Origin: an uncultured bacterium
GTDB lineage: Bacteria; Bacillota; Clostridia; Oscillospirales; CAG-272
NCBI GenBank assembly: GCA_945920215.1
Contig: CAMEJM010000009.1
Location: forward strand, 332-64,331
Direction: 5' to 3'
DNA length: 64,000 nt
The translations under genes were made by a program, and so were the position numbers. This document shows positions 6,101-37,332 of this stretch, piece by piece. The notes beneath the pieces are model-generated. The model was given only the letters and a program-made list of their open reading frames with translations, was not told where the DNA came from and did not search any database. The first letter of the stretch is position 1. Each line of letters opens with the position of its first letter.

Positions 6101-6937
6101 TTACGCTTCGACTTCCAAGCCGTCATAGCCGACGAGGAAGCCGTACTTCGCCGCTTCTTCGCTCAGTTCTTCGTGATCGTGACCGTGTAATTCATTATGC
6201 GAAAAATGCGTCACAATGAATGTTGTCTGATCGTCCGCAAGACCTTCTTTGAGAAGGCGATCTTTCATCAGCACATCGGTACGAAGGCTCATGTGACCAT
6301 GGTCCCAGCCCGTAGGAGCATACGTGCCCGTACAATCAAGCGACACAATATCGAAGCGTCCCAAACGCTTCATCTCATCGATCACCTGATTTGTGAACAT
6401 ACCGGTATCATGCGCATACAAAATGCGCTTTTTCTCTTTGTCTTCCACCGCATAAATCACGGGTGTGGATTCGGGACCGTGGTCTGCACGCAGGACAAGC
6501 ACTCTGTTTTCTCCAAGCTGCAACAGATCGCCGGGTTTCACTTCCGTTATACGCGCGCGGGAACTGTCGGCAGCGGGAGACGAGAAAACTTCTTTCATTT
6601 TGTCGTACGCCGATCTTGCCCCGTAAAAATCAATCTGCGAAACATTGTGCGAGTAGTGCGGCTCGGCAAACATGATCAGATCTTCCGGATACAAATGATC
6701 GGAATGGCTGTGCGTGATCAGGCAATACTTGATCTTCGTCCAATCGAATCGGTATGTTTGGTAATGCGCCACGGTGTCGGCGTTGAAGTCAAACAGGATC
6801 TCTTCGTTCAAAAGCGCCTGTGCGCGCGTGCGCAGATTCTTTCCGCCGAGAAGCATCGCCCTTTTACAAGATTCGCATTGACAGAACAGCGCGGGAATGC
6901 CCTCGTATGCCGCTGTCCCAAAATACTTCATTTTCAT
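6101..6937 (-). CDS. MBL-fold metallo-hydrolase
   Basis: Contains the HxHxDH motif (ITHSHSDHLY) and N-terminal Cys pairs (CQCESC) as in PhnP-like MBL enzymes. I chose the MKMKYFG start at 6937. The ORF extends to 7006. Confidence 0.75.
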   Translation of the reverse strand: MKMKYFGTAAYEGIPALFCQCESCKRAMLLGGKNLRTRAQALLNEEILFDFNADTVAHYQTYRFDWTKIKYCLITHSHSDHLYPEDLIMFAEPHYSHNVSQIDFYGARSAYDKMKEVFSSPAADSSRARITEVKPGDLLQLGENRVLVLRADHGPESTPVIYAVEDKEKKRILYAHDTGMFTNQVIDEMKRLGRFDIVSLDCTGTYAPTGWDHGHMSLRTDVLMKDRLLKEGLADDQTTFIVTHFSHNELHGHDHEELSEEAAKYGFLVGYDGLEVEA

Positions 6938-7077
6938 AATTCTCTTCAACCTTTCTCTGACTGTTGGTGACGGTGTTTTTCCAAAGGGTGATTTTCTCGC
7001 AAACATACAGGATGAAAAGCGTTTGATACAACCTATATGCCCGACCGGATGGGAGCGAGAAAAGCAAATGATGAGCC

Positions 7078-7674
7078 TTATATTTCCATATCGTCGATCA
7101 AATGCTGCTGCGCCAGCGAACGCAGAAGAGCAATCTCATTTCGCACGCTCCGCTCGAGGCGTGCGTCTGTGCGCCATCCGAGGCATTGTTCCGCCGTGTG
7201 CTCGGTATAGCCGAACACCTGTATATAGTGAGGTAAAAACAGTTTTGCGAGCGCAAGACTGCGGCGCATATGAAACGGCTCCGTGATGACGGCGACGCTT
7301 TTCACGTCGGTCACATTCCCACGGGCATAGATCGCTCCGAACGAGCAAATCATATTTCCCACGGTATCCCTTGCGTGCGGCTCGTCCACCACGGCGTCGG
7401 CGGGGACACCCAGTGCGAGCAGCCTCTGCCGCATGACCGCGCATTCTGTTTGGGTCGGATCGGATACGGCGGCGCCGGATGCCACGATCCGTGCCGTACC
7501 GCCGCGCAAATAGTACGACGCCGCGATCTCCGCACGAACACACGCATAAGTCGGCTCCGTGCCAAGCAAAAACGCATAGTCGGCGTGCCGCAGGACTTCG
7601 TTGCTCTCGTCAAATAAAAGCGCCTTGATCTGCGCATCCGTCAATTGCTCAAAATAGGCTTCCGATATACGCAT
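7078..7674 (-). CDS. YdcF/ElyC (DUF218) family protein
   Basis: 198 aa. DUF218 pattern: GGTARIVASG...ECAVMRQRLLALGVPADAVVDEPHARDTVGN. Confidence 0.7.
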   Translation of the reverse strand: MRISEAYFEQLTDAQIKALLFDESNEVLRHADYAFLLGTEPTYACVRAEIAASYYLRGGTARIVASGAAVSDPTQTECAVMRQRLLALGVPADAVVDEPHARDTVGNMICSFGAIYARGNVTDVKSVAVITEPFHMRRSLALAKLFLPHYIQVFGYTEHTAEQCLGWRTDARLERSVRNEIALLRSLAQQHLIDDMEI

Positions 7675-8037: not shown

Positions 8038-8066
8038 TTGACAAAGCGTATGACGCGTGCTATCCT
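8038..8066 (+). promoter_or_regulatory. possible sigma-A promoter (TTGACA-N17-TATCCT)
   Basis: TTGACA at 8038-8043 and TATCCT at 8061-8066. The -10 is weak. It overlaps the annotated ORF start, which argues for a downstream translation start. Confidence 0.35.
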
Positions 8067-8154
8067 TATGGTAGGCGGAGAGGGAGGAGAACGGCTTTCG
8101 GCGGTTTTCCTTTCCGTCGCGCCGATTTTGTACTGTTCGGGAGATATTGGACGA

Positions 8155-8913
8155 ATGAAAGCGGTTCATACGGTCATTTCATGGTGCTTTTTGCTTTATT
8201 TTGTCATTCTGTTTGCGGAACGGGCGCAAAGCCTGATCCGTATCTGTCTTGCCTCGGAGACGCGCCTTTTGGGCACGGCGTTTGACGCATTTGTCAATAT
8301 CACGACCATTCTTTCGCTCGGTGCCTCGGTCGTTCTGCTCGCCTGCCTGAACGGCGGGTTCTGGAAGTCTTTGTTCCATTCGGGCGCGCAGGTGAACGAA
8401 TCCGTGCTTTGCATCACCGCCGGGGTCATTCTAATCGCCGGTATGATGCACACCGAATATACCGTTGCGCCGATTCAGTTTGCCGCTTACGGGATGCTGA
8501 TTCTCGCCATGGTTCTGAAAACGGTCTCCGTGCAGAGCACCGTTGCGCACCCCGCGTTGCTTTGGCTGTCGCTGGTCTATCTGACCGCGCTTTCCATGGC
8601 GATTCCCGTGATGTATCGCTCTCAGATCACCTATGCCGCCTTGTTCCACGTGATCGAGGCTGTTGCCGCCTTGGTGCTGGTGGCTGCGTTCACCTTCCTT
8701 TTGCGCCGGGTATTCCTCGGTCAGGGCGAGAATCTCTTTCTCTGGCTCCCGATCCTTCTTGCCGCCGTGCTTGACGGCGTGCTTCTTGCCCTGCGCTGGC
8801 AGGAAAAGGTCAACACCTTTGTCCTGATCTTTCTGATTGCCGCCTGCGTTCTGTTCGCCGTCGGAAAGACCTTTGCCGCCGTGCTGGCAAGACAGACGGG
8901 AACGCAGATCTAA
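8155..8913 (+). CDS. polytopic membrane protein (unknown function)
   Basis: About 7 hydrophobic helices. I chose the start at MKAVHTVISW, which has GGGAGA 10 nt upstream. The ORF track start (8038) coincides with the -35 box. Confidence 0.55.
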   Translation: MKAVHTVISWCFLLYFVILFAERAQSLIRICLASETRLLGTAFDAFVNITTILSLGASVVLLACLNGGFWKSLFHSGAQVNESVLCITAGVILIAGMMHTEYTVAPIQFAAYGMLILAMVLKTVSVQSTVAHPALLWLSLVYLTALSMAIPVMYRSQITYAALFHVIEAVAALVLVAAFTFLLRRVFLGQGENLFLWLPILLAAVLDGVLLALRWQEKVNTFVLIFLIAACVLFAVGKTFAAVLARQTGTQI

Positions 8914-8932
8914 CACAATCAAACCCAAAAAA

Positions 8933-8962
8933 GAGGGGGATTCCGTGCCCCTCTCTTTTTTT
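8933..8962 (+). terminator. rho-independent terminator
   Basis: GAGGGG (8933-8938) pairs with CCCCTC (8948-8953) and is followed by TCTTTTTTT. Confidence 0.7.
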
Positions 8963-9101
8963 GCTCGGACGCTCAAACTCCGCCCCCGGAGAAGCCGCAA
9001 GCGCCTTTTCCGCTATGCGGCACGCGGGCAAAGCCGCGCGCATTTTATGAAGAACAGAAAAGAAAATTGTCCCCTATGACGCTGCATTTCAAAAATGCCA
9101 C

Positions 9102-9130
9102 TTGAATATACAATTGTAATGTGATAGAAT
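9102..9130 (+). promoter_or_regulatory. strong sigma-A promoter of the RHH-SPFH-TIR operon
   Basis: TTGAAT (9102-9107), 17-nt spacer, TAGAAT (9125-9130), in a locally AT-rich patch. A second TAGAAT copy lies 5 nt downstream (TAGAATACTATTAGAAT), giving a direct repeat that could be an RHH operator. Confidence 0.7.
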
Positions 9131-9194
9131 ACTATTAGAATCTAAAACACAAAAAGAGTTTCAAAGAATCAATCACTATGAAGCGAGGTATGTG

Positions 9195-9380
9195 ATGGAC
9201 GGAAAAAAACTGACCATTGTCTCCCGAAAGTACAGGGGAGATTCCGTGGTAATCTCATCGCGGCTGGCAAGCGATCTGCTGAAAAAAATCGACGCCATTG
9301 CCGAGCAAACCGGCAGAACGCGGAATGAAATCATCCAGATCAGCCTGGAATATGCTGTGGACAACATGGAAATCAAGTAA
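9195..9380 (+). CDS. ribbon-helix-helix (CopG/Arc-type) DNA-binding protein
   Basis: 61 aa. A beta-strand segment (VVISSRL) is followed by two helices (ASDLLKKIDAIAEQTGRTRNEIIQISLEYAV). GAGG lies 7 nt upstream of the ATG at 9195. Confidence 0.7.
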   Translation: MDGKKLTIVSRKYRGDSVVISSRLASDLLKKIDAIAEQTGRTRNEIIQISLEYAVDNMEIK

Positions 9381-9394
9381 TACGGAGGGGCAGT

Positions 9395-10645
9395 ATGGCA
9401 ATCGCGTATATTATCAAATACGAGGGGAACAACGCCACGTTTGTGTGGAAGCACCCCGCAGAGGACTTTAACTGTCTGACGCAGCTGATCGTCCACGAAT
9501 CGCAGGAAGCGGTATTCTTCATGAACGGGCAGGCACAGGACGTGTTCGGCCCGGGGCGGTACACGCTTGAAACGCAGAATATCCCTAAAATCGGAAAGCT
9601 CCTCAATCGGGCGACCGGGGACCGAACCCCCTTTCACTGCGAGGTTTACTTTGTCAACAAGACAGAGCAGATGTGCATCAAGTGGGGGACCGACTCCCGC
9701 GTGCAGTATGTGGAGCCCACCTACGGCTTCCCGATCTCGATCGGCGCGTCGGGCGAGATGACCCTGCGGGCGGAGGACAGCCTGAAGCTGCTTGTGAAGC
9801 TGGTCGGCACCGAGGCGTTTCTCGGACAGCAGCAACTGACCTCCTATTTCCGCGCTTTTCTGATGACAAAGGTGAAGACCTATATCGCTTCGGTCATCAA
9901 AGCGCAGAAGATTGACATTTTTGAAATCGACGAGCAATTGCAGCCTCTTTCGGAGGCGCTGAAAGGACTGCTGCGCGGCGATTTCGCAGATTACGGCATC
10001 CGGCTCGAACGCTTCTTTGTGATGAACATCGTCAAACCCGACGGCGAACCCATGTACGAGAAGTTCAAATCCCTGCACTTCCGTCAATACGCCGACATCG
10101 CGGAGGCAAAGCTGCAACAGACGGTGGGCGTGATCAACGCGCAGACCGACGCGCAGAAAACCGTGATTGCCTCGCAGGCGCTGGCAACCAAGCGCGCGCA
10201 GGAGGGCTATACGTATCAGCAGGAGCGCGGCTTTGACGTTGCTTCCGAGGTGGCGCGCAACGAGGCGGTCGGGCAGTTTACCAACATGGGCGTGGGGTTG
10301 GGCACCATGGCAGGCGTCGGCGGAGCCGTCGCAGGTATGGTCGGAGGCGTGATGACCGGCGCCGTGGACGGCGCCATGCAGGAGCCCCCAAAACCGGCGG
10401 CAAATACCGCTTGCCCGAAATGCGGCGCGTTGTTGCCCGCCGGGGCAAGGTTCTGCCTTATTTGCGGGGAGCAGGTCGCCGAGAAAAGCGCAGGAGCAAT
10501 ATGTCCCGACTGCGGAAAACCCGTTCCGACAGGGGCAAAGTTCTGCCCGGAATGCGGGCACCGCTTTGCCGCGGTTTGCCCGAAATGCGGGAAAGAAATT
10601 CCTGCCGGGGCGAAATTCTGCATGGAGTGCGGTGAGAAACTGTAA
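9395..10645 (+). CDS. SPFH/Band-7 family protein (YdjI-like 'virion core protein' type) fused to a Gly-rich hydrophobic segment and three C-terminal zinc ribbons
   Basis: The N-terminal 290 aa match the YdjI-like SPFH pattern (IIKYEG....FVWKHP.EDF...QLIVHESQEAVFF.NG...FGPGRY.L.T.N.P). These are followed by GVGLGTMAGVGGAVAGMVGGVMTG and then 3x CPxCG-N9-11-FCxxCG. GGAGGGG RBS. Confidence 0.85.
   Translation: MAIAYIIKYEGNNATFVWKHPAEDFNCLTQLIVHESQEAVFFMNGQAQDVFGPGRYTLETQNIPKIGKLLNRATGDRTPFHCEVYFVNKTEQMCIKWGTDSRVQYVEPTYGFPISIGASGEMTLRAEDSLKLLVKLVGTEAFLGQQQLTSYFRAFLMTKVKTYIASVIKAQKIDIFEIDEQLQPLSEALKGLLRGDFADYGIRLERFFVMNIVKPDGEPMYEKFKSLHFRQYADIAEAKLQQTVGVINAQTDAQKTVIASQALATKRAQEGYTYQQERGFDVASEVARNEAVGQFTNMGVGLGTMAGVGGAVAGMVGGVMTGAVDGAMQEPPKPAANTACPKCGALLPAGARFCLICGEQVAEKSAGAICPDCGKPVPTGAKFCPECGHRFAAVCPKCGKEIPAGAKFCMECGEKL
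10412..10633 (+). repeat. three tandem zinc-ribbon coding repeats
   Basis: CPKCGALLPAGARFCLICG / CPDCGKPVPTGAKFCPECG / CPKCGKEIPAGAKFCMECG (aa 340-413 of the SPFH protein). Confidence 0.85.
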
Positions 10646-10658
10646 GGAGATTTGACAG

Positions 10659-11366
10659 ATGAAAATCAACAAGTATTTCAAATACTACGGCATTTCATGG
10701 GTTCTGAGTCTGATTCTGTTCCATGTGATCGCTTTTGTGACGCCGCATGAGATCGGCGGTATCAACCGCCTTGAGAAGCCCGCGTTCTGGATCGGCTACG
10801 CGCTGCTGCTGCTCGCGCTCATCGGGCAACTGATATGCAGCTATCTGTTCCTGCGGGACGATAAAAAGGAAAAGATATTCCTGCGCTTTGCGGTGCTGCG
10901 GGTCGGCGCGGTTTCCCTCGCTGTTTCGGTTCTCATCGGCGCGGTGTTCTTCCTGTTGCCGAAGCTGCCCGCCTGGGCGGCGTCCGTCATTGCGTTACTT
11001 GCCCTTGTCTTTTATATCTGCGGGGGCTTGCGCGCCGTTGCCGCAGAAGAAGCCGTGACCGAAATCGGCGAGCGCGGCGACGGGAAAACGAGTTTCATAC
11101 ATACGATTACGGCGGAGGCAAAGGCGCTGACGGGGTATGCCACGCCCGCTACCGAGGACGCCGCCAACCGCGTTTACGAGGCGCTGCGGTACAGTGTTCC
11201 CGCCTCGAAAACCGAAACCGCCGATATTGAAACCGAGATATTCGACGTGTTTGCCGCCTTTTCGGAAAATGTGAAAAACGGCGAAGAGGAGCCGGCAAAC
11301 GAGGCAGCGCGCCGTCTTGTCTCTCTGATTGAGGAACGCAACGCGAAGAGCAGACTTTCCCACTGA
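10659..11366 (+). CDS. 4-TM membrane protein with helical cytoplasmic tail; paralog of 32148..32822
   Basis: 235 aa. AAGGAG RBS. It shares the motifs FWI.YA..LLAL..Q, ALRYS.P and a C-terminal LVS..ERN with the ORF at 32148..32822. Confidence 0.7.
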   Translation: MKINKYFKYYGISWVLSLILFHVIAFVTPHEIGGINRLEKPAFWIGYALLLLALIGQLICSYLFLRDDKKEKIFLRFAVLRVGAVSLAVSVLIGAVFFLLPKLPAWAASVIALLALVFYICGGLRAVAAEEAVTEIGERGDGKTSFIHTITAEAKALTGYATPATEDAANRVYEALRYSVPASKTETADIETEIFDVFAAFSENVKNGEEEPANEAARRLVSLIEERNAKSRLSH

Positions 11367-11431
11367 CGCGGCTGACCGGGGGTAGCTCCGGACTGCAAAA
11401 GAAACAGAATTGTCACTTTACAGGAGACAAC

Positions 11432-14400
11432 ATGGCAATTTTCAAATGTAAAATGTGCGGCGGCTCGCTGGAGGTCAAACAGGGGGCGAGCGTGATCGAG
11501 TGCGCGTACTGCGGGACGAAGCAGACCCTGCCGAAGCTTGAGGACGAGCGGCGCGCGAACATCTATGACCGCGCCAACCATTTCCGCCGGGCGAACGACT
11601 TTGACAAGGCGATGGCGCTCTATGAGCAGATTCTCACGGAGGATCCGAGCGACGCCGAGGCGTACTGGTCGATCGTACTCTGCCGCTACGGAATCGAATA
11701 CGTCAAAGACCCGGTCAGCGGCAGGCGCGTGCCGACCGTCAACCGGATGCAATTGACCTCTGTCCTCGCGGACGAGGACTACAAGTCCGCGCTTGCGCAC
11801 GCCGACGGGTACCAAAGGGGCCTGTACGAGGCGGAGGCAAAGGAGATAGATGGGATCCAGAGGGGAATTCTCGCCATTTCACAGAAAGAAGAGCCGTTCG
11901 ACGTCTTTATCTGCTACAAGGAGACGGACGCAAGCGGGGAGAGAACGCGGGACAGCGTGCTTGCCAACGACCTCTATTACGAGCTGACGCACGAGGGATT
12001 CAAGGTGTTTTTCTCGCGCATTACGCTGGAGGATAAGCTGGGGACGGAATACGAGCCGTACATATTCGCGGCGCTGCAATCCGCGCCCGTGATGGTGGTG
12101 CTGGGGACAAAGGCGGAGCATTTCAACGCGCCGTGGGTGCGGAACGAATGGAGCCGGTATCTGGCGCTTATCCGCGGCGGCGCAAAAAAGACCTTGATTC
12201 CCGCTTACCGCGATATGGACCCCTACGATCTGCCGGACGCGTTCTCGCACTTGCAGGCGCAGGATATGTCCAAACTGGGCTTCATGCAGGACCTTGTGCG
12301 AGGCATCAAGAAACTGATCCGCGGGGAGGCGCCGCAGAAATCCGCCGACGTCAAAGAGGAAGCGGCGCCGTTTCCGCTTTCAGGCGAATTTCAGTACATG
12401 AAGCGGGCGCACATTTATATTGAAGACGGCGATTGGGAATCTGCCGACGAGTATACCGAGCGCGCGCTGGACGTGGATCCGGAAAACGCCAACGCATATC
12501 TTTTGAAACTGGCGGTTTCTCTGCATCTTGACAGCGAAGAAAAACTGTTGCAGCACTGCCGGTCCATTGCCGACAACCCGAACTATATCAAGGCGCTGCG
12601 CTATTCCAAGGGGAAACGGCACGAACAGATTGCCGCGTATGAGACGCAGATACAGAAGAACATCAAGGACGAAACGCGCAACCGAATTGTGCGCGAGGCC
12701 CTGGCATATGCGGAGCGCAGGAATGCCACCGAGCAGGAACTTGAAGGGGCGCTGAAAAACCTCGGCACACTGCGCGATTGCGAACAGGCAGAGGACGCGC
12801 GCGCCAAGGTGCAGGCAGCCTTGAAACGGGTGAGGGGCGAGAATGCCGCCCGAAAAGAAAAAGAGCGGGAGCAGATCTATGCGCGCGCACAGGCGCACAT
12901 GAAGAATCTGAAACGCTATTCGGATTATGAAAGCGCCGTCACCCTTTTTTCACAGCTCAGCGGTTGGCGGGACGCCGACGCGCTCCGCGCGCAATGCGAG
13001 CGGGAACGCGCGAAAATCGAAAAGGCGAGAAAAAGGCGCACATGGATCATCGCCGGAGCCATCCTTTTTCTGACCGTTCTTGCCGTGATCATCACCTGCG
13101 TGGCGGTGAGCAGCTACCGAAAGAGCGCCAAAGCGCAGCTGGTGTATGAGAAGAAGTACGGCGAAGTGATGATCACCGGATACAAGGGGTATCTTTCGTC
13201 CAAACTGGAAATTCCGTCCGTGATCGATCAATGCCCGGTGACGGACATCGGGAGCGGCGCGTTTGAGGGATGCAAGCGTTTGACCTCCGTGACGATACCC
13301 GGCAGCGTTGTGGATATCAGAAGCAACGCGTTCGCCGATTGTACCGCTCTCAAAAGCGTCACCATCGAGGACGGGGTTGAGAGAATCAGGGACGGTGCGT
13401 TTTCCGGCTGTACAAAACTGACCGAAGCGGTCATTCCGGACAGCGTGACGGAGATCGGAAAAAACGCGTTTGCCGCGTGTACGTCCCTGACCTCCGTGAC
13501 CATCGGCTCCGGTGTCGGGAGCATTGGCGACGAGGCGTTTTCCGGCTGTTCGGCGTTGACCTCCGTGACGATTCCGGACAGCGTGACCGACAGCGGGACT
13601 TATGTGTTCAAGGATTGCACGGGTATGACCGCCGCGGTCATCGGAAACGCAGTCACGCTCATCGACAGCGGTATGTTCGAGGGTTGCACAGCACTGACTT
13701 CCGTGTCGTTCGGAGAGAGTGTGAATGAAATCGGTTCCAATGCGTTCTTTAACTGCGGGAGTTTAACGGAGGCGATCCTGCCGGACGGCGTGACAGGTAT
13801 CGGGGACAGCGCTTTTTCGGGGTGCATAGGTCTGAATCGCATTGTCATCCCGAACAGCGTCAAAAGCATCGGAAAGGATGTGTTCGCGGGGTGCACTGCG
13901 ATTCGGTATGCCGCCATGCCGGCAGGGGCGATTTCATCCGTTCCCAAAATCAGCCTGCAAACCGCGGTGATCGGCGGCAGCGGCGGTATTGGCGACCGTG
14001 CGTTCTATGATTGCGGGGCTTTGACTTCCGTAACCGTTGAAAACGGTGTGACGAGCATCGGGGACCACGCGTTCTATTATTGCATGAATCTGACGTCGCT
14101 GACCCTGCCCGACGGCGTGACAAGTATCGGTGACAGCGCGTTTTATTACTGCATGAATCTGACGTCGGTGACTCTGCCCGACACTGTGACAAGTATCGGT
14201 CAGGATGCGTTTTATGGCTGTGCAAGTCTGACTTCCGTGACAATTCCGAAGAGCGTGACGTACATTGGAATTGGTGCGTTCAACAATTGTTTTGATCTGA
14301 CTTCCGTGACATTTGAATATACAGACGGTTGGTATCGGTATGAAAGCGATGCAAGCGGCACTTCCTCTTACGGTGAGGCGGTGTCGGTTACAGACGCGGC

Positions 14401-14458
14401 GGAAAACGCGACAAATATGAGTTTTGCCTATCCACAATGCTACTGGAAGCGTTCCTGA
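11432..14458 (+). CDS. zinc-ribbon / TPR / TIR domain protein with a single TM helix and a C-terminal BspA-type leucine-rich-repeat ectodomain
   Basis: 1008 aa. AGGAGA RBS. The domain order was read directly from the translation (see sub-features). Confidence 0.9.
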   Translation: MAIFKCKMCGGSLEVKQGASVIECAYCGTKQTLPKLEDERRANIYDRANHFRRANDFDKAMALYEQILTEDPSDAEAYWSIVLCRYGIEYVKDPVSGRRVPTVNRMQLTSVLADEDYKSALAHADGYQRGLYEAEAKEIDGIQRGILAISQKEEPFDVFICYKETDASGERTRDSVLANDLYYELTHEGFKVFFSRITLEDKLGTEYEPYIFAALQSAPVMVVLGTKAEHFNAPWVRNEWSRYLALIRGGAKKTLIPAYRDMDPYDLPDAFSHLQAQDMSKLGFMQDLVRGIKKLIRGEAPQKSADVKEEAAPFPLSGEFQYMKRAHIYIEDGDWESADEYTERALDVDPENANAYLLKLAVSLHLDSEEKLLQHCRSIADNPNYIKALRYSKGKRHEQIAAYETQIQKNIKDETRNRIVREALAYAERRNATEQELEGALKNLGTLRDCEQAEDARAKVQAALKRVRGENAARKEKEREQIYARAQAHMKNLKRYSDYESAVTLFSQLSGWRDADALRAQCERERAKIEKARKRRTWIIAGAILFLTVLAVIITCVAVSSYRKSAKAQLVYEKKYGEVMITGYKGYLSSKLEIPSVIDQCPVTDIGSGAFEGCKRLTSVTIPGSVVDIRSNAFADCTALKSVTIEDGVERIRDGAFSGCTKLTEAVIPDSVTEIGKNAFAACTSLTSVTIGSGVGSIGDEAFSGCSALTSVTIPDSVTDSGTYVFKDCTGMTAAVIGNAVTLIDSGMFEGCTALTSVSFGESVNEIGSNAFFNCGSLTEAILPDGVTGIGDSAFSGCIGLNRIVIPNSVKSIGKDVFAGCTAIRYAAMPAGAISSVPKISLQTAVIGGSGGIGDRAFYDCGALTSVTVENGVTSIGDHAFYYCMNLTSLTLPDGVTSIGDSAFYYCMNLTSVTLPDTVTSIGQDAFYGCASLTSVTIPKSVTYIGIGAFNNCFDLTSVTFEYTDGWYRYESDASGTSSYGEAVSVTDAAENATNMSFAYPQCYWKRS
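11897..12316 (+). other. TIR domain (aa ~156-295), candidate catalytic Glu239 at 12146-12148
   Basis: FDVFICYKETD (betaA), GFKVFFSRITL (betaB), IFAALQSAPVMVVLGT, NAPWVRNEWSRY. The W...E lies where NAD-cleaving TIRs carry the catalytic glutamate. Confidence 0.8.
13043..13117 (+). other. single transmembrane helix (aa 538-562)
   Basis: KARKRRT-WIIAGAILFLTVLAVIITCVAVSSY-RKS. The positive cluster lies on the N-terminal (TIR) side. Confidence 0.75.
13184..14314 (+). repeat. about 16 tandem 23-aa BspA-type LRR units
   Basis: Recurrent pattern IP.SVT.IG..AF..C..LTSVT. Units at 14048-14116 and 14117-14185 are about 83% identical at the DNA level (my hand count: 57/69, including an 18-nt identical run). 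Confidence 0.85.
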
Positions 14459-14590
14459 CAGAGAGAAAGAGCATCGGTATGACGTGACGGCGATTCAGGT
14501 CGCACACGTCGGGCGGCTTATCGGCGCGGAGGCGGGGAGCCCGCTTTCGCGCTTTTCGTGCGCCTATGCCGCAGTGTGCGGGGGAAGGAC

Positions 14591-14619
14591 TTGCAAATTG
14601 CTTGGGTTTGTGCTATGAT
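14591..14619 (+). promoter_or_regulatory. sigma-A promoter (TTGCAA-N17-TATGAT)
   Basis: Hexamers at 14591-14596 and 14614-14619. A GC-rich leader of about 115 nt follows before the permease ATG. Confidence 0.55.
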
Positions 14620-32147: not shown

Positions 32148-32822
32148 TTATTTGCTCAGGTTGACGACGCGGTTGCGCTCGGAGACAAGACCGTTTGCGT
32201 CGGCAATCAGCTTCTCCGCCTTCTCGGGGTCGGAAAGCGCGCCTTTCAGCTCCGCGATGACGGCGGCGAGTCCAGCGTCGCACTCCGCGGTGTTCGCCGC
32301 GGGGTTGGCAGGGCTGTACCGCAGGGCGGCGGCGAGATCCGCAAGCTGCCCTTTCAAGCCGGCGGGGGCGGCATTGGCGAGGGCGTCCGCTTCCGTGGCG
32401 AGGGCGCGCATCGGGTAACGGTTGACGCGGCCGGCAGTCTCCAGCGCGCGGACTTCATCTTTTGCGAAGAGGGTAAGCAGCAGGAAAATCAGCGCTACCC
32501 CGAACAGGATGGAAAGAATCAGAACAGCGTACTGCGGCGCGAGTTTTGCGGCAAAGGGCAGCATGATCGCGCAGGCAATGAGCTGCACAGCGGTATACAC
32601 CGAGGAGACCGCGAATGCCGGAATTTTCAGAAAGCGGGTGGCGGGGGCGCGGGAAGACGCCTGCGCGCAGGTCAGCGCCGTCTGAATGAGCAGGGCAAGC
32701 AGTGTAAAGGCATAGATGATCCAGAACGTGGTGCTGTGCGTAAAGGGAAGCAGAAAGACCAAGAGGTGGAAAATCGCGAGCAGAACCAGACATACGGAAA
32801 ATGAAAGCGCGAATTTTTTCAT
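32148..32822 (-). CDS. 4-TM membrane protein, paralog of 10659..11366
   Basis: Start at MKKFALSF (32822). Same helix layout and shared motifs (FWIIYAFTLLALLIQ, ALRYSPA, LVSERN) as the membrane protein in the TIR operon. Confidence 0.65.
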   Translation of the reverse strand: MKKFALSFSVCLVLLAIFHLLVFLLPFTHSTTFWIIYAFTLLALLIQTALTCAQASSRAPATRFLKIPAFAVSSVYTAVQLIACAIMLPFAAKLAPQYAVLILSILFGVALIFLLLTLFAKDEVRALETAGRVNRYPMRALATEADALANAAPAGLKGQLADLAAALRYSPANPAANTAECDAGLAAVIAELKGALSDPEKAEKLIADANGLVSERNRVVNLSK

Positions 32823-32943
32823 ATGGGTATCCTTTCTTGTCGCCCCGCAGGGGCGGTGTGTAATGAGAAAGCCTGCGGCGGGGGATGTGACCGCGCGGCG
32901 GGACAGCGGACGGACAGGTGCGCAGCTTGCGGCGGAGCAGCCG

Positions 32944-33195
32944 TTACAGGGCGTCCAATGCGGGAAGCAGCTCCGCCGGGGTGACGCCGAGCGCAGCCGA
33001 GAGATAGACAAGCTCATAATCCGTGACCATGCGGGCGTTGTGCTCGATCTTGCTCACCATCTGCTGGTCGATCGAGATACCGTAGGTTTGCAGTTTTGCA
33101 GCCAATTGCCCCTGCGACATTCCGCGCGAGGTGCGCAGGTTTTTCAAAGCAGACGAGATGACGTTTTTGTGACCGTTATAATCTGTTTTTTTCAT
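32944..33195 (-). CDS. XRE-family helix-turn-helix transcriptional regulator
   Basis: 83 aa. LKNLRTSRGMSQGQLAAKLQTYGISIDQQMVSKIE. GGAGG RBS before the ATG at 33195. Confidence 0.8.
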   Translation of the reverse strand: MKKTDYNGHKNVISSALKNLRTSRGMSQGQLAAKLQTYGISIDQQMVSKIEHNARMVTDYELVYLSAALGVTPAELLPALDAL

Positions 33196-33270
33196 TGACG
33201 GTGCGAACCTCCTTATTTGGTATTTACGGATTCTTCCATTAAATTTTACCATATATTTGGTTTTTGTGTA

Positions 33271-33301
33271 CGCTATATTAGAGTAATAAGCGAATATAGC
33301 G
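33271..33301. promoter_or_regulatory. operator-like perfect 9-bp inverted repeat
   Basis: CGCTATATT-N13-AATATAGCG, in the AT-rich divergent region between the XRE gene and the structural operon. Confidence 0.45.
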
Positions 33302-33638
33302 TAAAACGGGACCGGATAAAAAACGGGGAGTGCGGCATGGAGGACAGACGAAAAGGAGCGGAGACGAAACAGGCGGGGCGGAGAGGGAGGAGGGCGCAGG
33401 GGGAACGGAGTGTGCAAAGGAGAGCGACTGGGTGCGAAAAGAGGGATTTGCAGGCGGGGAAAAATCGCATGGTTTCGCATCGTTTCGCTTGGTCAGCGGC
33501 GGGCTGCGGAGAGCCGGGCCAGGTCGGTCAGGGTGTTTTCACCGAGAGAAAAGCAGGCGCCAGAACAACGGCGAAACGCCTTGCATTTCAGGCAACGCTT
33601 TGTTTTTCGGGGCAGGGGCGGGACAAGTGCATATACGC

Positions 33639-33805: not shown

Positions 33806-34126
33806 ATGGCGTACAGTCAATGCTTTGAGCGGCAGATGCTCCAATATTTTTCGGACGAGTCCACGCCGGAGTTCCCTACCTTTGCATCGTTTGCGATGAA
33901 GATCGGGGTGCCGATGAGGGAGCTGGAGGCTTGGCGGCGCGAGCAGTCGACTTTTGCCGCCGCGTGGGAGGAATGCCGGGAGAGGCAGAAATCCGCCCTG
34001 ATACGCGGCGCTTTGGCAAAACGGTATGACGCGAGCACCGCCAAATACCTTCTGGGAACCCTGTTCGGGCTTGGCGAGGAGCAGGCGGAACAGAGTTTCT
34101 CCGTCACGGTGGAGGTGGTCGAATGA
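33806..34126 (+). CDS. terminase small subunit
   Basis: 106 aa. HTH-like PTFASFAMKIGVPMRELEAWRRE...AAWEECRERQKSALI.GAL...Y....AKYLL, typical of terS. ATGA stop/start overlap with terL. AAAGGAGAG RBS. Confidence 0.65.
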   Translation: MAYSQCFERQMLQYFSDESTPEFPTFASFAMKIGVPMRELEAWRREQSTFAAAWEECRERQKSALIRGALAKRYDASTAKYLLGTLFGLGEEQAEQSFSVTVEVVE

Positions 34127-35490
34127 AGCTGCGCGTGACGCGCAAACAGAAGCAATTTCTGGACGCGAGCGCGACAGAAGTGCTGTTCGGCGGTGCTGCC
34201 GGGGGCGGCAAATCCTACGGACAGCTCATCGACGCCTTCCTCTTTGCCCTGCGCTATCCCGCTTCCAAGCAGCTGATCCTGCGGCGGACGTTTGCCGAGC
34301 TTGAAAAGTCCCTCATCCGCGTGAGTCTGACCCTGTTCCCGCGCACGGTATATACCTACCATGCGACGGCGCACACGGGCAGATTCCCGAACGGGAGCCT
34401 GATCGACTTCGGTTACTGCGCAAACGAAAACGACGTATTTCAGTATCAGAGCGCGGAATACGACGTGGTACGCTTTGACGAGCTGACGCATTTCACGGAA
34501 TTTCAGTACCTTTATCTGATTTCCCGTGTGCGCGGCGCGAACGGCTACCCCAAGCAAATCAAGTCCTCGACCAACCCCGGCGGCGTGGGCCACGGGTGGG
34601 TCAAGGCGCGGTTTGTCGACCCTGCGCCGCCCGAAACCGTCTTTGAAGCGGCGGACGGCAGCACAAGGGTTTTCATACCGTCAAAAATCGATGACAACCT
34701 GTTCCTGACGCGCGCCGACCCCGACTATCGTCGGCGGCTGCTGGCACTGCCGGAGAGGGAGCAGAGGGCGCTTCTGCGGGGAGACTGGAACATTTTTGAA
34801 GGACAGTACTTCACGGAGTTCTCTTATGAAACGCACACCTGCGACCCGCTTCCTCTGCCCGCCGAATGGCGGCGCTATCGCACCATTGACTACGGGCTTG
34901 ACCGCCTGGCTTGCCTGTGGGTGGCTGTGGATCACGAACGGAACGCGTATGTCTATCGGGAACTGTGTGAGTCGGATCTGATTGTTTCCCGTGCCGCGGA
35001 GAAAATTCTGGAAGCCACCCCGCCCGAGGAGCGCATTTATGCCACCCTTGCCCCGCCCGATCTCTGGGCGCGCAGTCAGGAGAGCGGGCGCAGCAAGGCG
35101 CTCCTGTTCGCGGAGAACGGACTTCATTTCACCAAGACCGCAAACGACAGGGAAACAGGCTGGCTTTCCGTCAAGGAGCTGTTGCGCCGCGACGGCGAAG
35201 GGAGGGCGCGTCTGCACATTTTCAGGACGTGTACGGAGCTGATCCGGTGTCTGCCGATGTTGCAGATCGACCCGTTGCGCCCGACCGACACGCTGACCGA
35301 GCCGCACAGCATCACCCACGCACCCGACGCCCTGCGCGGGTTCGCCATCTATTACAGCCGCCCCGCCGATCCGCCCTCGCCGGCGTCGGCGGTCTGGTCG
35401 CCGGACTTGATGGAGGACTACGAGCGGGCAGGCGAGGAGGAGAGGGAATATCTGCGCAGGCGGTGGGGAACTCCCTCTTTTCCCACATAG
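34123..35490 (+). CDS. terminase large subunit
   Basis: Walker A FGGAAGGGKSY, Walker B VVRFDELTHF, and a C-terminal RNaseH-like nuclease half (DYGL...). Confidence 0.9.
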   Translation: MKLRVTRKQKQFLDASATEVLFGGAAGGGKSYGQLIDAFLFALRYPASKQLILRRTFAELEKSLIRVSLTLFPRTVYTYHATAHTGRFPNGSLIDFGYCANENDVFQYQSAEYDVVRFDELTHFTEFQYLYLISRVRGANGYPKQIKSSTNPGGVGHGWVKARFVDPAPPETVFEAADGSTRVFIPSKIDDNLFLTRADPDYRRRLLALPEREQRALLRGDWNIFEGQYFTEFSYETHTCDPLPLPAEWRRYRTIDYGLDRLACLWVAVDHERNAYVYRELCESDLIVSRAAEKILEATPPEERIYATLAPPDLWARSQESGRSKALLFAENGLHFTKTANDRETGWLSVKELLRRDGEGRARLHIFRTCTELIRCLPMLQIDPLRPTDTLTEPHSITHAPDALRGFAIYYSRPADPPSPASAVWSPDLMEDYERAGEEEREYLRRRWGTPSFPT

Positions 35491-35502: not shown

Positions 35503-37332
35503 ATGTATATTGACAAGCACACCGACCGCCTGAGGTTCTTTTCGGAGCTGTATGAGAGCGCCAAGAACAGCCGGAGCGACGTTGCGGCGAGCCTGACGCG
35601 CCACTGGAACCAATACTGCGGCAGCGACGAGATCGACGGCAGCGCCGAGAGGGCGCAGGCGGTGCGGAACATTACCTATGAAATCATCGAGAGTCAGATC
35701 AACTCCGATATCCCCGCCCCGAAGGTGGACGCCAAGCGGTACAGCGTGCGCCATGACCATAACGCCACGGCAATCGAACGCCTGTGCGCCAAGGTGCGGG
35801 ACGAGCTGCCCTTTGAGGAATTCAACGATATGGACGAGCGCTATACCTATATCTTCGGCGGCAGCGTCTGGCTGGTGGAATGGGACAGCGAGCGCGTGGA
35901 CGCGGGCGAGGTCGGCGGCGTGAAGGTCAGCTGCATCAGTCCCGAGGACTTCGTGCCGCAGCCGAACATCTACCGCGTGGAGGATATGGAGTACTGCTTC
36001 CTGCGGTTCATCACCACGCGCGACGAGCTGTGCAGGCGCTATCATATCACGGCGGAGCAGGCGCGGAAAGCCGCCACCGAACAGGAGGGGCTGTGCCGTG
36101 CGGACGACGACACCGTGACGCTGGTGGTTTGCTTCTGGCGGGACGAGGCGGGCGAGGTCTGCCGTTTCGCATGGTCGGGAGACGTGATTCTCTCGGACGT
36201 GGAGCGGTATTACAGGCGCAAGGACTGCTTCTGCAAAAAATGCGGGCAGCGTGTGAATCTCTGCCGGTGCGAAAAGCCGGAGCGGGAGCTAAGGGACCTT
36301 GACGGGGAAACTCTTACCCATCCCATTTTCCTCAGCGACAACAACTGCATTCCCGCCACCACCACCGTATTCGGCGGAGAGGGGGACGAGGGGTGCTACG
36401 AGGTGCCGACCAGACTGCCGTACTACCAACCGCATTCTTTTCCCATCGTGATCCGCCGCAACATCAGCGCCGACAAGCAGCTGCTGGGGCAGTCGGACTG
36501 TGAATTCCTGCGGCCGGAGCAGCAGCAGATCAACAAGGTGGAGAGCCGGATTATGCAGAAGTTGATGCGCTCCGGGATCACGCCTCTTGTGCCGGAGGAC
36601 GCCTCCGTCACGCTCAACAACGCGATTTTCGGACAGGTCATCCGCCTCAGACCCGGAGAGAGCGCCGCCAATTACGGCACCGTGGATACCACCCCCGACA
36701 TCGCGCAGGACATCGCGCAGGCGGAGCGACTGTACGAACACGCCAAGCGCGTCATCGGCATTTCCGACGCGTATCAGGGGCTTGACACCACCCACAACGA
36801 GTCCGGTTACGCGCGACAGATCCGAATCCGCCAGGCGGCGGGGCGCTTGGAATCCAAGCGGCGCATGAAGTATACCGCCTATGCCGCCATCGACCGCCTG
36901 ATTTTCGAGCATTACCTCGCTTACGCGGACGAGCCGCGGGTGCTCAGTTACACCGACTGTTTCGGGGTCAAGCGCCAGTCCACCTTTAACCGATACGATT
37001 TTCTGGAGTACGACCCCGCGCGGGATCTGTATTACTATGACGACGGGTATCTCTTCTCGGTGGATCTGTCCGGCGGGCCGGAACAGCAAAGAGAGGAAAT
37101 GTGGGAGAAAAACCTTGAAAATCTGCAGGCGGGCACGCTCGGCGACCCTGCCGACTACGCAACGCTTCTGCGCTACTGGCAGAACCAGGAGCGCTCCCAC
37201 TATCCCTTTGCGAAAGAAAACGTCGCGTATTTCTTGGATCTGATACGCAGGAAAGGAGAGAGTGACGGTGAGTACAACGGGCAGTACAACGGTGAAGAAT
37301 CCGGAGATTGCGGAATACCTGAAACTGTATGA
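35503..37332 (+). CDS. portal protein (with a Cys-rich insertion)
   Basis: 609 aa, immediately after terL. The N-terminal motif ...AVRNITYEIIESQI.S.IP.PKV... resembles portal families. Insertion: CFCKKCGQRVNLCRC. Confidence 0.75.
   Translation: MYIDKHTDRLRFFSELYESAKNSRSDVAASLTRHWNQYCGSDEIDGSAERAQAVRNITYEIIESQINSDIPAPKVDAKRYSVRHDHNATAIERLCAKVRDELPFEEFNDMDERYTYIFGGSVWLVEWDSERVDAGEVGGVKVSCISPEDFVPQPNIYRVEDMEYCFLRFITTRDELCRRYHITAEQARKAATEQEGLCRADDDTVTLVVCFWRDEAGEVCRFAWSGDVILSDVERYYRRKDCFCKKCGQRVNLCRCEKPERELRDLDGETLTHPIFLSDNNCIPATTTVFGGEGDEGCYEVPTRLPYYQPHSFPIVIRRNISADKQLLGQSDCEFLRPEQQQINKVESRIMQKLMRSGITPLVPEDASVTLNNAIFGQVIRLRPGESAANYGTVDTTPDIAQDIAQAERLYEHAKRVIGISDAYQGLDTTHNESGYARQIRIRQAAGRLESKRRMKYTAYAAIDRLIFEHYLAYADEPRVLSYTDCFGVKRQSTFNRYDFLEYDPARDLYYYDDGYLFSVDLSGGPEQQREEMWEKNLENLQAGTLGDPADYATLLRYWQNQERSHYPFAKENVAYFLDLIRRKGESDGEYNGQYNGEESGDCGIPETV

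Follow-up and report, generated by a model that had tools for sequence, protein, structure and literature searches.

A conserved SPFH, four-transmembrane and TIR gene unit of gut Clostridia that looks like a surface-linked defence or signalling system

The genes of an SPFH protein, of a protein with four transmembrane helices (4-TM protein) and of a TIR protein form a unit that is conserved in hundreds of gut and rumen Clostridia. We followed this unit from a stretch of 64,000 nucleotides (nt) of an uncultured bacterium of the clostridial lineage CAG-272 (assembly GCA_945920215.1, contig CAMEJM010000009.1), which is called the window below, and in which the three genes stand behind a small ribbon-helix-helix (RHH) gene. 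The three-gene unit has the look of a defence or signalling system linked to the cell surface that has not been described before, with a layout reminiscent of a Toll-like receptor, in which a cytoplasmic TIR domain is predicted to be joined by one transmembrane (TM) helix to a leucine-rich-repeat (LRR) domain outside the cell. An earlier reading of the letters and open reading frames (ORFs) of the window, here called the sequence-only reading, had proposed a membrane-linked defence or stress module, and a defence-type or membrane-linked role stays the best reading that we can infer. The four genes are as follows (aa, amino acids).

9195–9380, + strand: RHH gene, 61 aa, CopG-type (Pfam RHH_1, E 7.8e-5; alternative start GTG at 9192)
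9395–10645, + strand: SPFH gene, 416 aa, YdjI-type, cytosolic
10659–11366, + strand: 4-TM gene, 235 aa
11432–14458, + strand: TIR gene, 1008 aa

All four genes lie on the + strand with intergenic gaps of 14, 13 and 65 nt, and the DNA before genes 1 to 4 carries the Shine-Dalgarno sequences GAGGT, GGAGGGG, AAGGAG and AGGAG. The claim of the sequence-only reading that the four genes are one operon was confirmed, and its domain calls (RHH, SPFH with three zinc ribbons, 4-TM and TIR-TM-LRR) proved correct by Pfam and hydropathy.

Conservation and spread of the unit

The N-terminal 431 aa of the TIR protein served as the query on the TIR side. A scan of one genome per species gave at least 571 confirmed stretches, and the best 80 loci were analysed by calling ORFs and searching them with the proteins of the window. 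Almost all of these 80 loci come from metagenome-assembled genomes (MAGs) of gut or rumen Clostridia of several families. An SPFH homolog was present in 57 of the 80 and a 4-TM homolog also in 57; where at least 3 kb was available on both sides (33 loci), SPFH was found in 30/33 and SPFH together with 4-TM in 29/33. The linkage was also seen from the other end, since a metagenome scan on the SPFH side gave 434 confirmed stretches, and in the 39 of these loci that offered 4.5 kb or more of downstream sequence, TIR was present in 37 and 4-TM in 36. The synteny of SPFH and TIR genes across Clostridia, by which the sequence-only reading had proposed to check its module, thus passes both ways.

The genes usually stand in the order [RHH]-SPFH-4TM-[one variable gene]-TIR on a single strand, with one to three TIR copies, and some loci show a second order, RHH-TIR-SPFH-4TM. 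The gap from SPFH to 4-TM has a median of 14 nt and does not exceed 30 nt in 94% of 124 loci. The linkage spans Oscillospiraceae, Lachnospiraceae, Christensenellaceae, Anaerovoracaceae and other families. It could be argued that the genes are neighbours by chance, or are co-transcribed without a joint function, and one relative (L002) that lacks the TIR gene would agree with this. We consider it very improbable, because the two-way linkage across families, the fixed order and strand and the tight gaps speak against it, and the synteny counts contradict it.

The N-terminal TIR family comprises at least 7948 protein clusters, of which the best are 62–72% identical to the query and differ in their C-terminal parts. 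Two of the loci, L010 and L013, come from MAGs labelled Bacteroides and Sphaerochaetaceae, with proteins 65% identical to the Clostridia ones; these labels reflect either mis-binned short contigs or a recent transfer. Another related locus, L084, belongs to a cultured isolate, Anaerotignum sp. MSJ-24.

The flanks of the module vary between genomes and consist of housekeeping genes, with tyrosine recombinases as the most frequent family among 150 flanking genes. The proposal of an inserted accessory cassette was therefore borne out in one part, the differing flanks, and found no support in base composition, as a GC scan of the window revealed no anomaly across the cassette except at the promoter region. 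A prophage- or plasmid-borne origin of the module was rejected because the N-terminal TIR query had no tblastn match in the INPHARED phages or the PLSDB plasmids, and only two loci in IMG/VR matched it. Searches of INPHARED and PLSDB with the SPFH protein gave weak partial matches only. The module is cellular.

The TIR protein

The TIR protein is built of the following parts, all encoded on the + strand.

aa 1–34, + strand: four-Cys zinc ribbon
aa 39–85, + strand: TPR (Pfam TPR)
aa 86–152, + strand: conserved beta-hairpin/helix region
aa 153–298, nt 11888–12325, + strand: TIR domain (Pfam TIR_2, E 7e-10)
aa 318–535, + strand: TPR and long coiled coil
11432–13042, aa 1–537, + strand: predicted cytoplasmic half
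13043–13114, aa 538–561, + strand: TM helix WIIAGAILFLTVLAVIITCVAVSS, the single TM segment by hydropathy
13115–14458, + strand: predicted extracellular half, BspA-type LRR to the stop codon (LRR_5, E 1.6e-103)

A signal peptide is absent, and a KARKRR cluster stands on the N-terminal side of the TM helix, which together place the N-terminal half in the cytoplasm and the LRR half outside. By the positive-inside rule, the TIR protein is thus predicted to be a type-II membrane protein with its N terminus inside and its C terminus outside.

In an alignment of 188 N-terminal halves of TIR proteins, the TIR domain is the most conserved block. Its catalytic-type motif W235-V-R-N-E239-W (W235 codon at 12134–12136, E239 codon at 12146–12148) is retained almost throughout, with E239 kept in 183/185 sequences and W235, N238 and W240 in 183–184 of the 188 rows, and the four cysteines of the zinc ribbon are present in 181/181 ungapped sequences. 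By comparison with AbTir and plant TIRs, we take W235-x3-E239 to be the W-x3-E arrangement of catalytic TIR domains. An AlphaFold2 (AF2) model of aa 1–600 had a mean predicted local distance difference test score (pLDDT) of 81, and Foldseek matched its TIR part to the TIR domains of plant L6, L7 and RUN1 with a probability of 1.00. When the whole N-terminal model was used, TPR proteins dominated the result and, since the model is multidomain, the TM-scores of the TIR matches were low when taken over the full query; a sequence search of the PDB returned TPR and zinc-ribbon matches only. The TIR domain keeps intact the catalytic motif of NAD-cleaving TIR domains and is a candidate NADase.

The variable outer domain and its diversification

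The cytoplasmic half is near-invariant across the family and the outer domain varies. Among 85 family members, the region past residue 430 carried DUF6273 in 53, LRR_5 in 11, RCC1-like repeats in 11, Flg_new in 3, RHS in 2 and MORN in 1, so that the LRR form of the window is a minority form beside the DUF6273 majority. Membrane tethering is general in the TIR family and an ectodomain is not. Many members are tail-anchored and others have several TM helices (P0022, P0023, P0029, P0041, P0044 and P0048, among others, for the two kinds together), and short and long TIR forms often stand side by side in tandem arrays; some of the tail-anchored or TM-less members may be truncated gene calls.

In several relatives, genes for bAvd and a reverse transcriptase (RT) follow the TIR gene. 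These are textbook diversity-generating retroelements (DGRs) directed at the 3' end of the TIR gene, which encodes DUF6273 there and is linked by repeats of 124–127 nt to a template between bAvd and RT. At three such loci (L020, 12312–12435 vs 13026–13149; L021, 12424–12550 vs 13117–13243; L030, 6520–6646 vs 7213–7339), 58 of the 63 mismatches between template and variable repeat fall on template adenines. Template/variable pairs were detected in 6 of the 80 genome loci (L016, L020, L021, L030, L044 and L053), with two variable repeats in L044, and among 142 loci with a TIR gene, 12 had bAvd or RT. In the template lies the coding sequence of CWWWLRSPG...VRPAL, a motif of DUF6273. This C-type-lectin-like domain is known as a target of DGRs in gut phages, where it belongs to receptor-binding proteins (PMC11792537, PMC10743442). 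The 64 kb of the window contain neither an RT nor a bAvd homolog, and hence no DGR.

Regulation types and the cargo slot

Where a gene for a ~280-aa tyrosine recombinase precedes SPFH, 8/8 tested loci contained an inverted repeat that was perfect or nearly so. The repeats are 18–34 nt long, share the core ACATAAT-N4-ATTATGT and flank 116–245 bp of intergenic DNA, which makes this segment a candidate invertible promoter (inverton).

Inverton loci: L018:4057–4325; L020:7287–7575; L021:6954–7131; L044:4588–4866
Inverton loci, continued: L054:1929–2209; L061:5887–6109; L066:6154–6422; L079:7110–7361

Loci of the recombinase type numbered 22 and those of the RHH type 19; none had both and 58 had neither, and the RHH protein and the recombinase look like two alternative modes of operon control. 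In the window, no such repeats were present at 8850–9450, and a recombinase was likewise missing.

A second variable element is the junction between the 4-TM and TIR genes.

11367–11431, + strand: 4-TM/TIR junction of 65 nt, the cargo slot in its empty state

Among 113 loci, this junction is shorter than 150 nt in 57 and holds an inserted gene (at least 300 nt) in 50, or ~44%. The slot genes are packed stop-to-start against their neighbours. Their GC content is 35.4% as against 46.7% for the module genes, and it is the lower of the two in 63/67 cases (Wilcoxon p 2.6e-12). A single conserved slot family was considered and rejected, since the slot genes are heterogeneous: DUF2971, HEPN (RiboL-PSP, pEK499_p136), DUF4365, SIR2_2, AbiH and small TIR proteins were all found, and several of them matched PADLOC models (PDC-S31, PDC-S66, PDC-S48 and ThsB). 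Examples are L020:9455–9994, L033:9384–9995, L046:2063–2488 and L063:8772–10004. Inspection by eye revealed no flanking repeat at the slot.

The variable outer domain and the variable control might also belong to a surface adhesin. The LRR or lectin domain would then bind host glycans, mucus or cells, and DGRs and phase variation would help the cell to adapt to its niche or to evade immunity; the TIR/TPR part in the cytoplasm, with SPFH and 4-TM, would only cluster or anchor the adhesin, or report attachment. Domains of the BspA-type LRR, Flg_new and C-type-lectin-like kinds typically bind at surfaces, the surface structures of gut bacteria commonly come with invertible promoters and DGRs, and the housekeeping flanks fit as well. 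However, conservation is far stronger in the cytoplasmic half than in the ectodomain, and a catalytic glutamate kept in nearly every sequence is unlike a passive anchor. Members without an ectodomain exist, and the operon-internal HEPN, DUF2971, AbiH, SIR2 and ThsB-like genes point to conflict. We regard the adhesin as an unlikely explanation, and the same holds for a cytoplasmic half with a merely clustering, anchoring or reporting role.

The SPFH and 4-TM partners

The two partner proteins have the following parts.

aa 28–216, nt 9476–10042, + strand: SPFH domain of the SPFH protein (Pfam Band_7_1, E 5e-39)
~aa 297–327, nt 10283–10375, + strand: Gly/Ala/Val-rich hydrophobic stretch of the SPFH protein
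aa 339–416, nt 10409–10642, + strand: three zinc ribbons of the SPFH protein (DZR, E 3e-25)
aa 10–121, nt 10686–11021, + strand: four TM helices of the 4-TM protein (four TM segments by hydropathy)
aa 122–235, nt 11022–11363, + strand: cytoplasmic helical bundle of the 4-TM protein (AF2 model)

The Band_7_1 match agrees with the earlier description of the SPFH protein as YdjI-like, and hydropathy revealed no strong TM segment in it. A long SPFH variant of 600–640 aa occurs in L015, L038, L045, L048, L049, L050, L055 and L077, with an extra N-terminal stretch of ~127 aa that opens with a zinc ribbon.

No Pfam family matches the 4-TM protein at E<=0.01. Its AF2 model (pLDDT 83.6) is all-helical, with four TM helices and a cytoplasmic helical bundle, and Foldseek found no fold match in the PDB at E<=0.001. 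A first word-index search with this protein gave 21 matches, which underestimates the size of the family; an exhaustive profile search gave 3450 representative clusters at E<=1e-3 and 2325 at E<=1e-10. In some members the 4-TM module is fused to N-terminal Ser/Thr kinases, with a zinc ribbon as well in P0249, and in others to a C-terminal trypsin-like peptidase, RCC1 repeats or Flg_new repeats (P0220, P0249, P0182, P0212 and P0255 for kinase and other kinds together). These fusions fit a role of the 4-TM protein as a general membrane adaptor for signalling enzymes.

The sequence-only reading had taken the fusion of zinc ribbons to the SPFH protein as a Rosetta-stone-like link between a phage-shock-type scaffold and the TIR protein. 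Ravi et al. described B. subtilis YdjI as a Band-7 protein with a C-terminal zinc ribbon (bioRxiv 10.1101/2020.09.24.301986). The fusion is the norm of the YdjI family and therefore uninformative, and this argument falls. The proposed link to the PspA/YdjGHI operon also did not hold, for the operon of the window has no PspA, TPM or YdjG-like partner.

An envelope-stress module nevertheless deserves consideration. SPFH and 4-TM would sense membrane damage in the manner of YdjGHI, the tethered TIR domain would be the output, and the ectodomain would only position or anchor the protein. The SPFH protein belongs to the YdjI family by its Band_7_1 domain and C-terminal zinc ribbons, and SamGHI, another name of YdjGHI, acts as a membrane stress sensor in B. 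subtilis (PMC8581546). Moreover, tail-anchored TIR members have no ectodomain, so that sensing need not be extracellular, and RHH-SPFH-4TM can occur without an adjacent TIR gene (L002). On the other hand, the 25 most frequent Pfam families in the 150 flanking genes of the relatives do not include PspA, a TPM domain is missing from the 4-TM protein, and the NTF2-like domain of YdjG is missing from the TIR protein. The stress module also leaves the ectodomain swapping, DGR hypermutation, tandem paralogs and defence-type cargo unexplained. In our judgement its probability is low.

A stand-alone paralog of the 4-TM protein is encoded elsewhere in the window, at 32148–32825 (- strand), with 27% identity over the full length (E 1e-8) and without a Pfam family. 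It adjoins an Xre-type HTH repressor gene (32944–33480, - strand) at the left edge of a prophage, whose genes on the + strand include the terminase large subunit (34123–35490) and the portal (35503–37332). The same prophage encodes at 40826–43627 (+ strand) a 933-aa protein with BspA-type LRR_5, the repeat type of the TIR protein ectodomain. Neither the prophage 4-TM paralog nor the 933-aa LRR_5 protein was matched in INPHARED. The prophage copy of the 4-TM protein could mimic or block the host module.

Signals and neighbouring genes in the window

The operon is bounded by the following signals.

8927–8961, + strand: hairpin and T-run, terminator of the upstream gene (8038–8913), arms AAAAAAGAGGGGG / CCCTCTCTTTTTT; left boundary of the unit
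9102–9130, + strand: promoter, -35 TTGAAT at 9102–9107, 17-nt spacer, -10 TAGAAT at 9125–9130
9110–9117, + strand: palindrome ACAATTGT in the promoter spacer, candidate RHH operator with an inferred role
14521–14557, + strand: weak hairpin with a T-rich tail after the TIR gene, likely transcript end by consensus-level evidence
14591–14619: promoter-like site of the next gene, separate from the operon, by consensus-level evidence

The promoter was found where the sequence-only reading had placed it, and it also has an extended -10 TG at 9122–9123; transcription would start at ~9137. A promoter-consensus scan gave 9 sites as against 3.3 in shuffled sequences, so a match to the consensus is weak by itself. 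The -35 element, the spacer palindrome TACA-N2-TGTA and TGnTAGAATAC are kept in the relatives L002 and L011, in which the flanks are not alignable, and we take the promoter as real because promoter and palindrome are kept in two relatives whose neighbouring DNA does not align. The public gene call and the alignment in relatives indicate ATG 9195 as the most likely start of the RHH gene. Wherever a related locus has an RHH gene, this gene comes first, and the RHH protein is likely the autorepressor of the operon, which would repress the promoter through the spacer palindrome.

Directly upstream lies an ORF of 291 aa (8038–8913, + strand) for a multi-pass membrane protein without a Pfam family; the terminator stands between it and the operon, and it is not conserved beside the module in other loci. 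Three genes upstream of the operon, at 6101–7006 (- strand), a gene of the metallo-beta-lactamase fold (Lactamase_B_2) has a weak precomputed match to the Anti-Pycsar Apyc1 family.

Discussion

We give about an even chance to a model in which the SPFH and 4-TM proteins organise a membrane TIR NADase that acts in phage or surface conflict. What speaks for a role in defence or conflict is the TIR chemistry, the diversification machinery and the cargo. TIR NADases are switched on by self-association, and in eukaryotes SPFH (flotillin-type) microdomains host immune receptors; SPFH proteins have been proposed to organise immune-type receptors in plants and animals. In the conflict model, the 4-TM protein would dock the SPFH oligomer under the membrane, and the resulting lattice would hold the TIR receptors apart, or gather them. 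A multivalent ligand outside, most likely a phage particle or another foreign surface, would bind the ectodomains, or the membrane would be damaged, and the TIR domains would self-associate. This would switch on NAD+ cleavage, with either depletion or a signal of the cyclic ADP-ribose (cADPR) type, upon which growth would stop or the co-encoded cargo effectors would be switched on.

A more far-reaching version is possible, although we hold it only tentatively and think it rather doubtful. The unit might be a widespread outside-in immune receptor of gut Clostridia, whose surface domain, antibody-like through DGRs in some lineages, would be wired through the TM helix to a TIR NADase, with the receptor set in a lattice of SPFH and 4-TM proteins under the membrane. 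Contact of the surface with a phage or a foreign cell would then lead to NAD+-based arrest before or at DNA entry. To our knowledge, the known bacterial TIR systems sense inside the cell. Such a receptor would follow, in bacteria, the logic of Toll-like or B-cell receptors, and as a defence system it would be of a kind that has not been catalogued.

Several observations weigh against the conflict reading. Many TIR members are tail-anchored, ending 4–16 residues past the TM helix, or have no predicted TM helix, and an outside ligand therefore cannot be the universal trigger. In the close relative L002, RHH-SPFH-4TM stands with no TIR gene next to it. The 150 flanking genes are those of ordinary housekeeping regions, not of defence islands, and the low GC content of the slot genes means that they may be hitch-hiking cargo and not partners. 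Mutation by DGRs and phase variation are no less typical of adhesins. The window itself has neither a DGR, nor an inverton, nor a slot gene, and PADLOC gave no match for its four proteins.

If the conflict reading is true, the dominant gut anaerobes carry a common, uncatalogued system in which surface sensing is coupled to a TIR enzyme. It would give a bacterial SPFH scaffold a concrete role, that of organising an immune-type receptor, and the DGRs of gut Firmicutes a cellular purpose. It would also supply an annotation for the 4-TM family and for the conserved zinc ribbon-TPR-TIR module, and the cargo slot and the invertible promoters would become handles on phage pressure in metagenomes.

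Comparison with known systems

In the literature on SPFH with TIR, SPFH with NADase, SPFH with anti-phage systems, DGR with TIR, and BspA with TIR, the operon was not found described; this search did not cover all journals. The nearest relative of the scaffold part is PspA-YdjGHI (SamGHI). In B. subtilis, integral partners are reported to recruit YdjI to the membrane (PMC8581546), and Ravi et al. described YdjG as a protein with two zinc ribbons, an NTF2-like domain and a TM segment, and YdjH as a TPM-domain membrane protein (10.1101/2020.09.24.301986). The unit of the window likewise has a Band_7_1 SPFH protein with C-terminal zinc ribbons that is encoded with integral membrane partners, one of which starts with a zinc ribbon, and its complex probably lies under the membrane. 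However, three of the four defining features of pspA-ydjGHI are absent. The operon contains no PspA. In place of YdjH there is a protein of four TM helices and a helical bundle without a TPM domain. In place of YdjG, compared by domain description, there is a TIR protein with one zinc ribbon, a TPR/TIR/TPR arrangement and a large ectodomain, and no NTF2-like domain. Ectodomain swapping, DGRs and invertons in the window family are further differences from PspA-YdjGHI.

The DUF6273 receptor-binding proteins of phages share with the family its majority ectodomain and a variable region at the C-terminal end. The window family differs from them in being cellular and fused to a cytoplasmic TIR domain, and the window itself carries LRR_5.

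With Thoeris ThsB, AbTir and plant L6 and RUN1, the TIR protein shares the TIR fold and W-x3-E, and the plant TIR NADases are its closest structural matches. In contrast to Thoeris and its kin, the operon lacks a partner of the ThsA type (SIR2 or Macro/SLOG) as well as any STAND or SAVED module; the NCBIfam model of Thoeris type III ThcB4 scored 23 bits against the TIR protein, with a cut-off of 220. The TIR domain of the window also differs from the TIR immune effectors in that it is membrane-tethered, with one TM helix leading to an outer domain.

Putative antigen sensors diversified by DGRs have been described in multicellular bacteria by Dore et al. (2024, PMC10907252) and Kaur et al. (2020, PMC7159879). 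In some members of the window family, too, a DGR-hypermutated C-type-lectin-like domain is linked to a TIR effector. The antigen sensors, however, are built on STAND NTPase or MoxR/vWA ternary cores, belong to Proteobacteria and cyanobacteria and are mostly cytoplasmic, whereas the family described here has no NTPase, places its sensor across the membrane, has SPFH and 4-TM partners and belongs to gut Clostridia.

The TIR protein has three elements that also make up a Toll-like receptor, an LRR domain, one TM helix and a TIR domain, and they are predicted to lie outside, across and inside the membrane. Their order is reversed, however, with the predicted inner TIR domain at the N terminus and the predicted outer LRR domain at the C terminus, and the repeats are of the BspA type. 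The TIR domain of the window also keeps the enzymatic glutamate, in contrast to the adaptor role of the TIR domain in Toll-like receptors. The Toll-like layout is probably the result of convergence.

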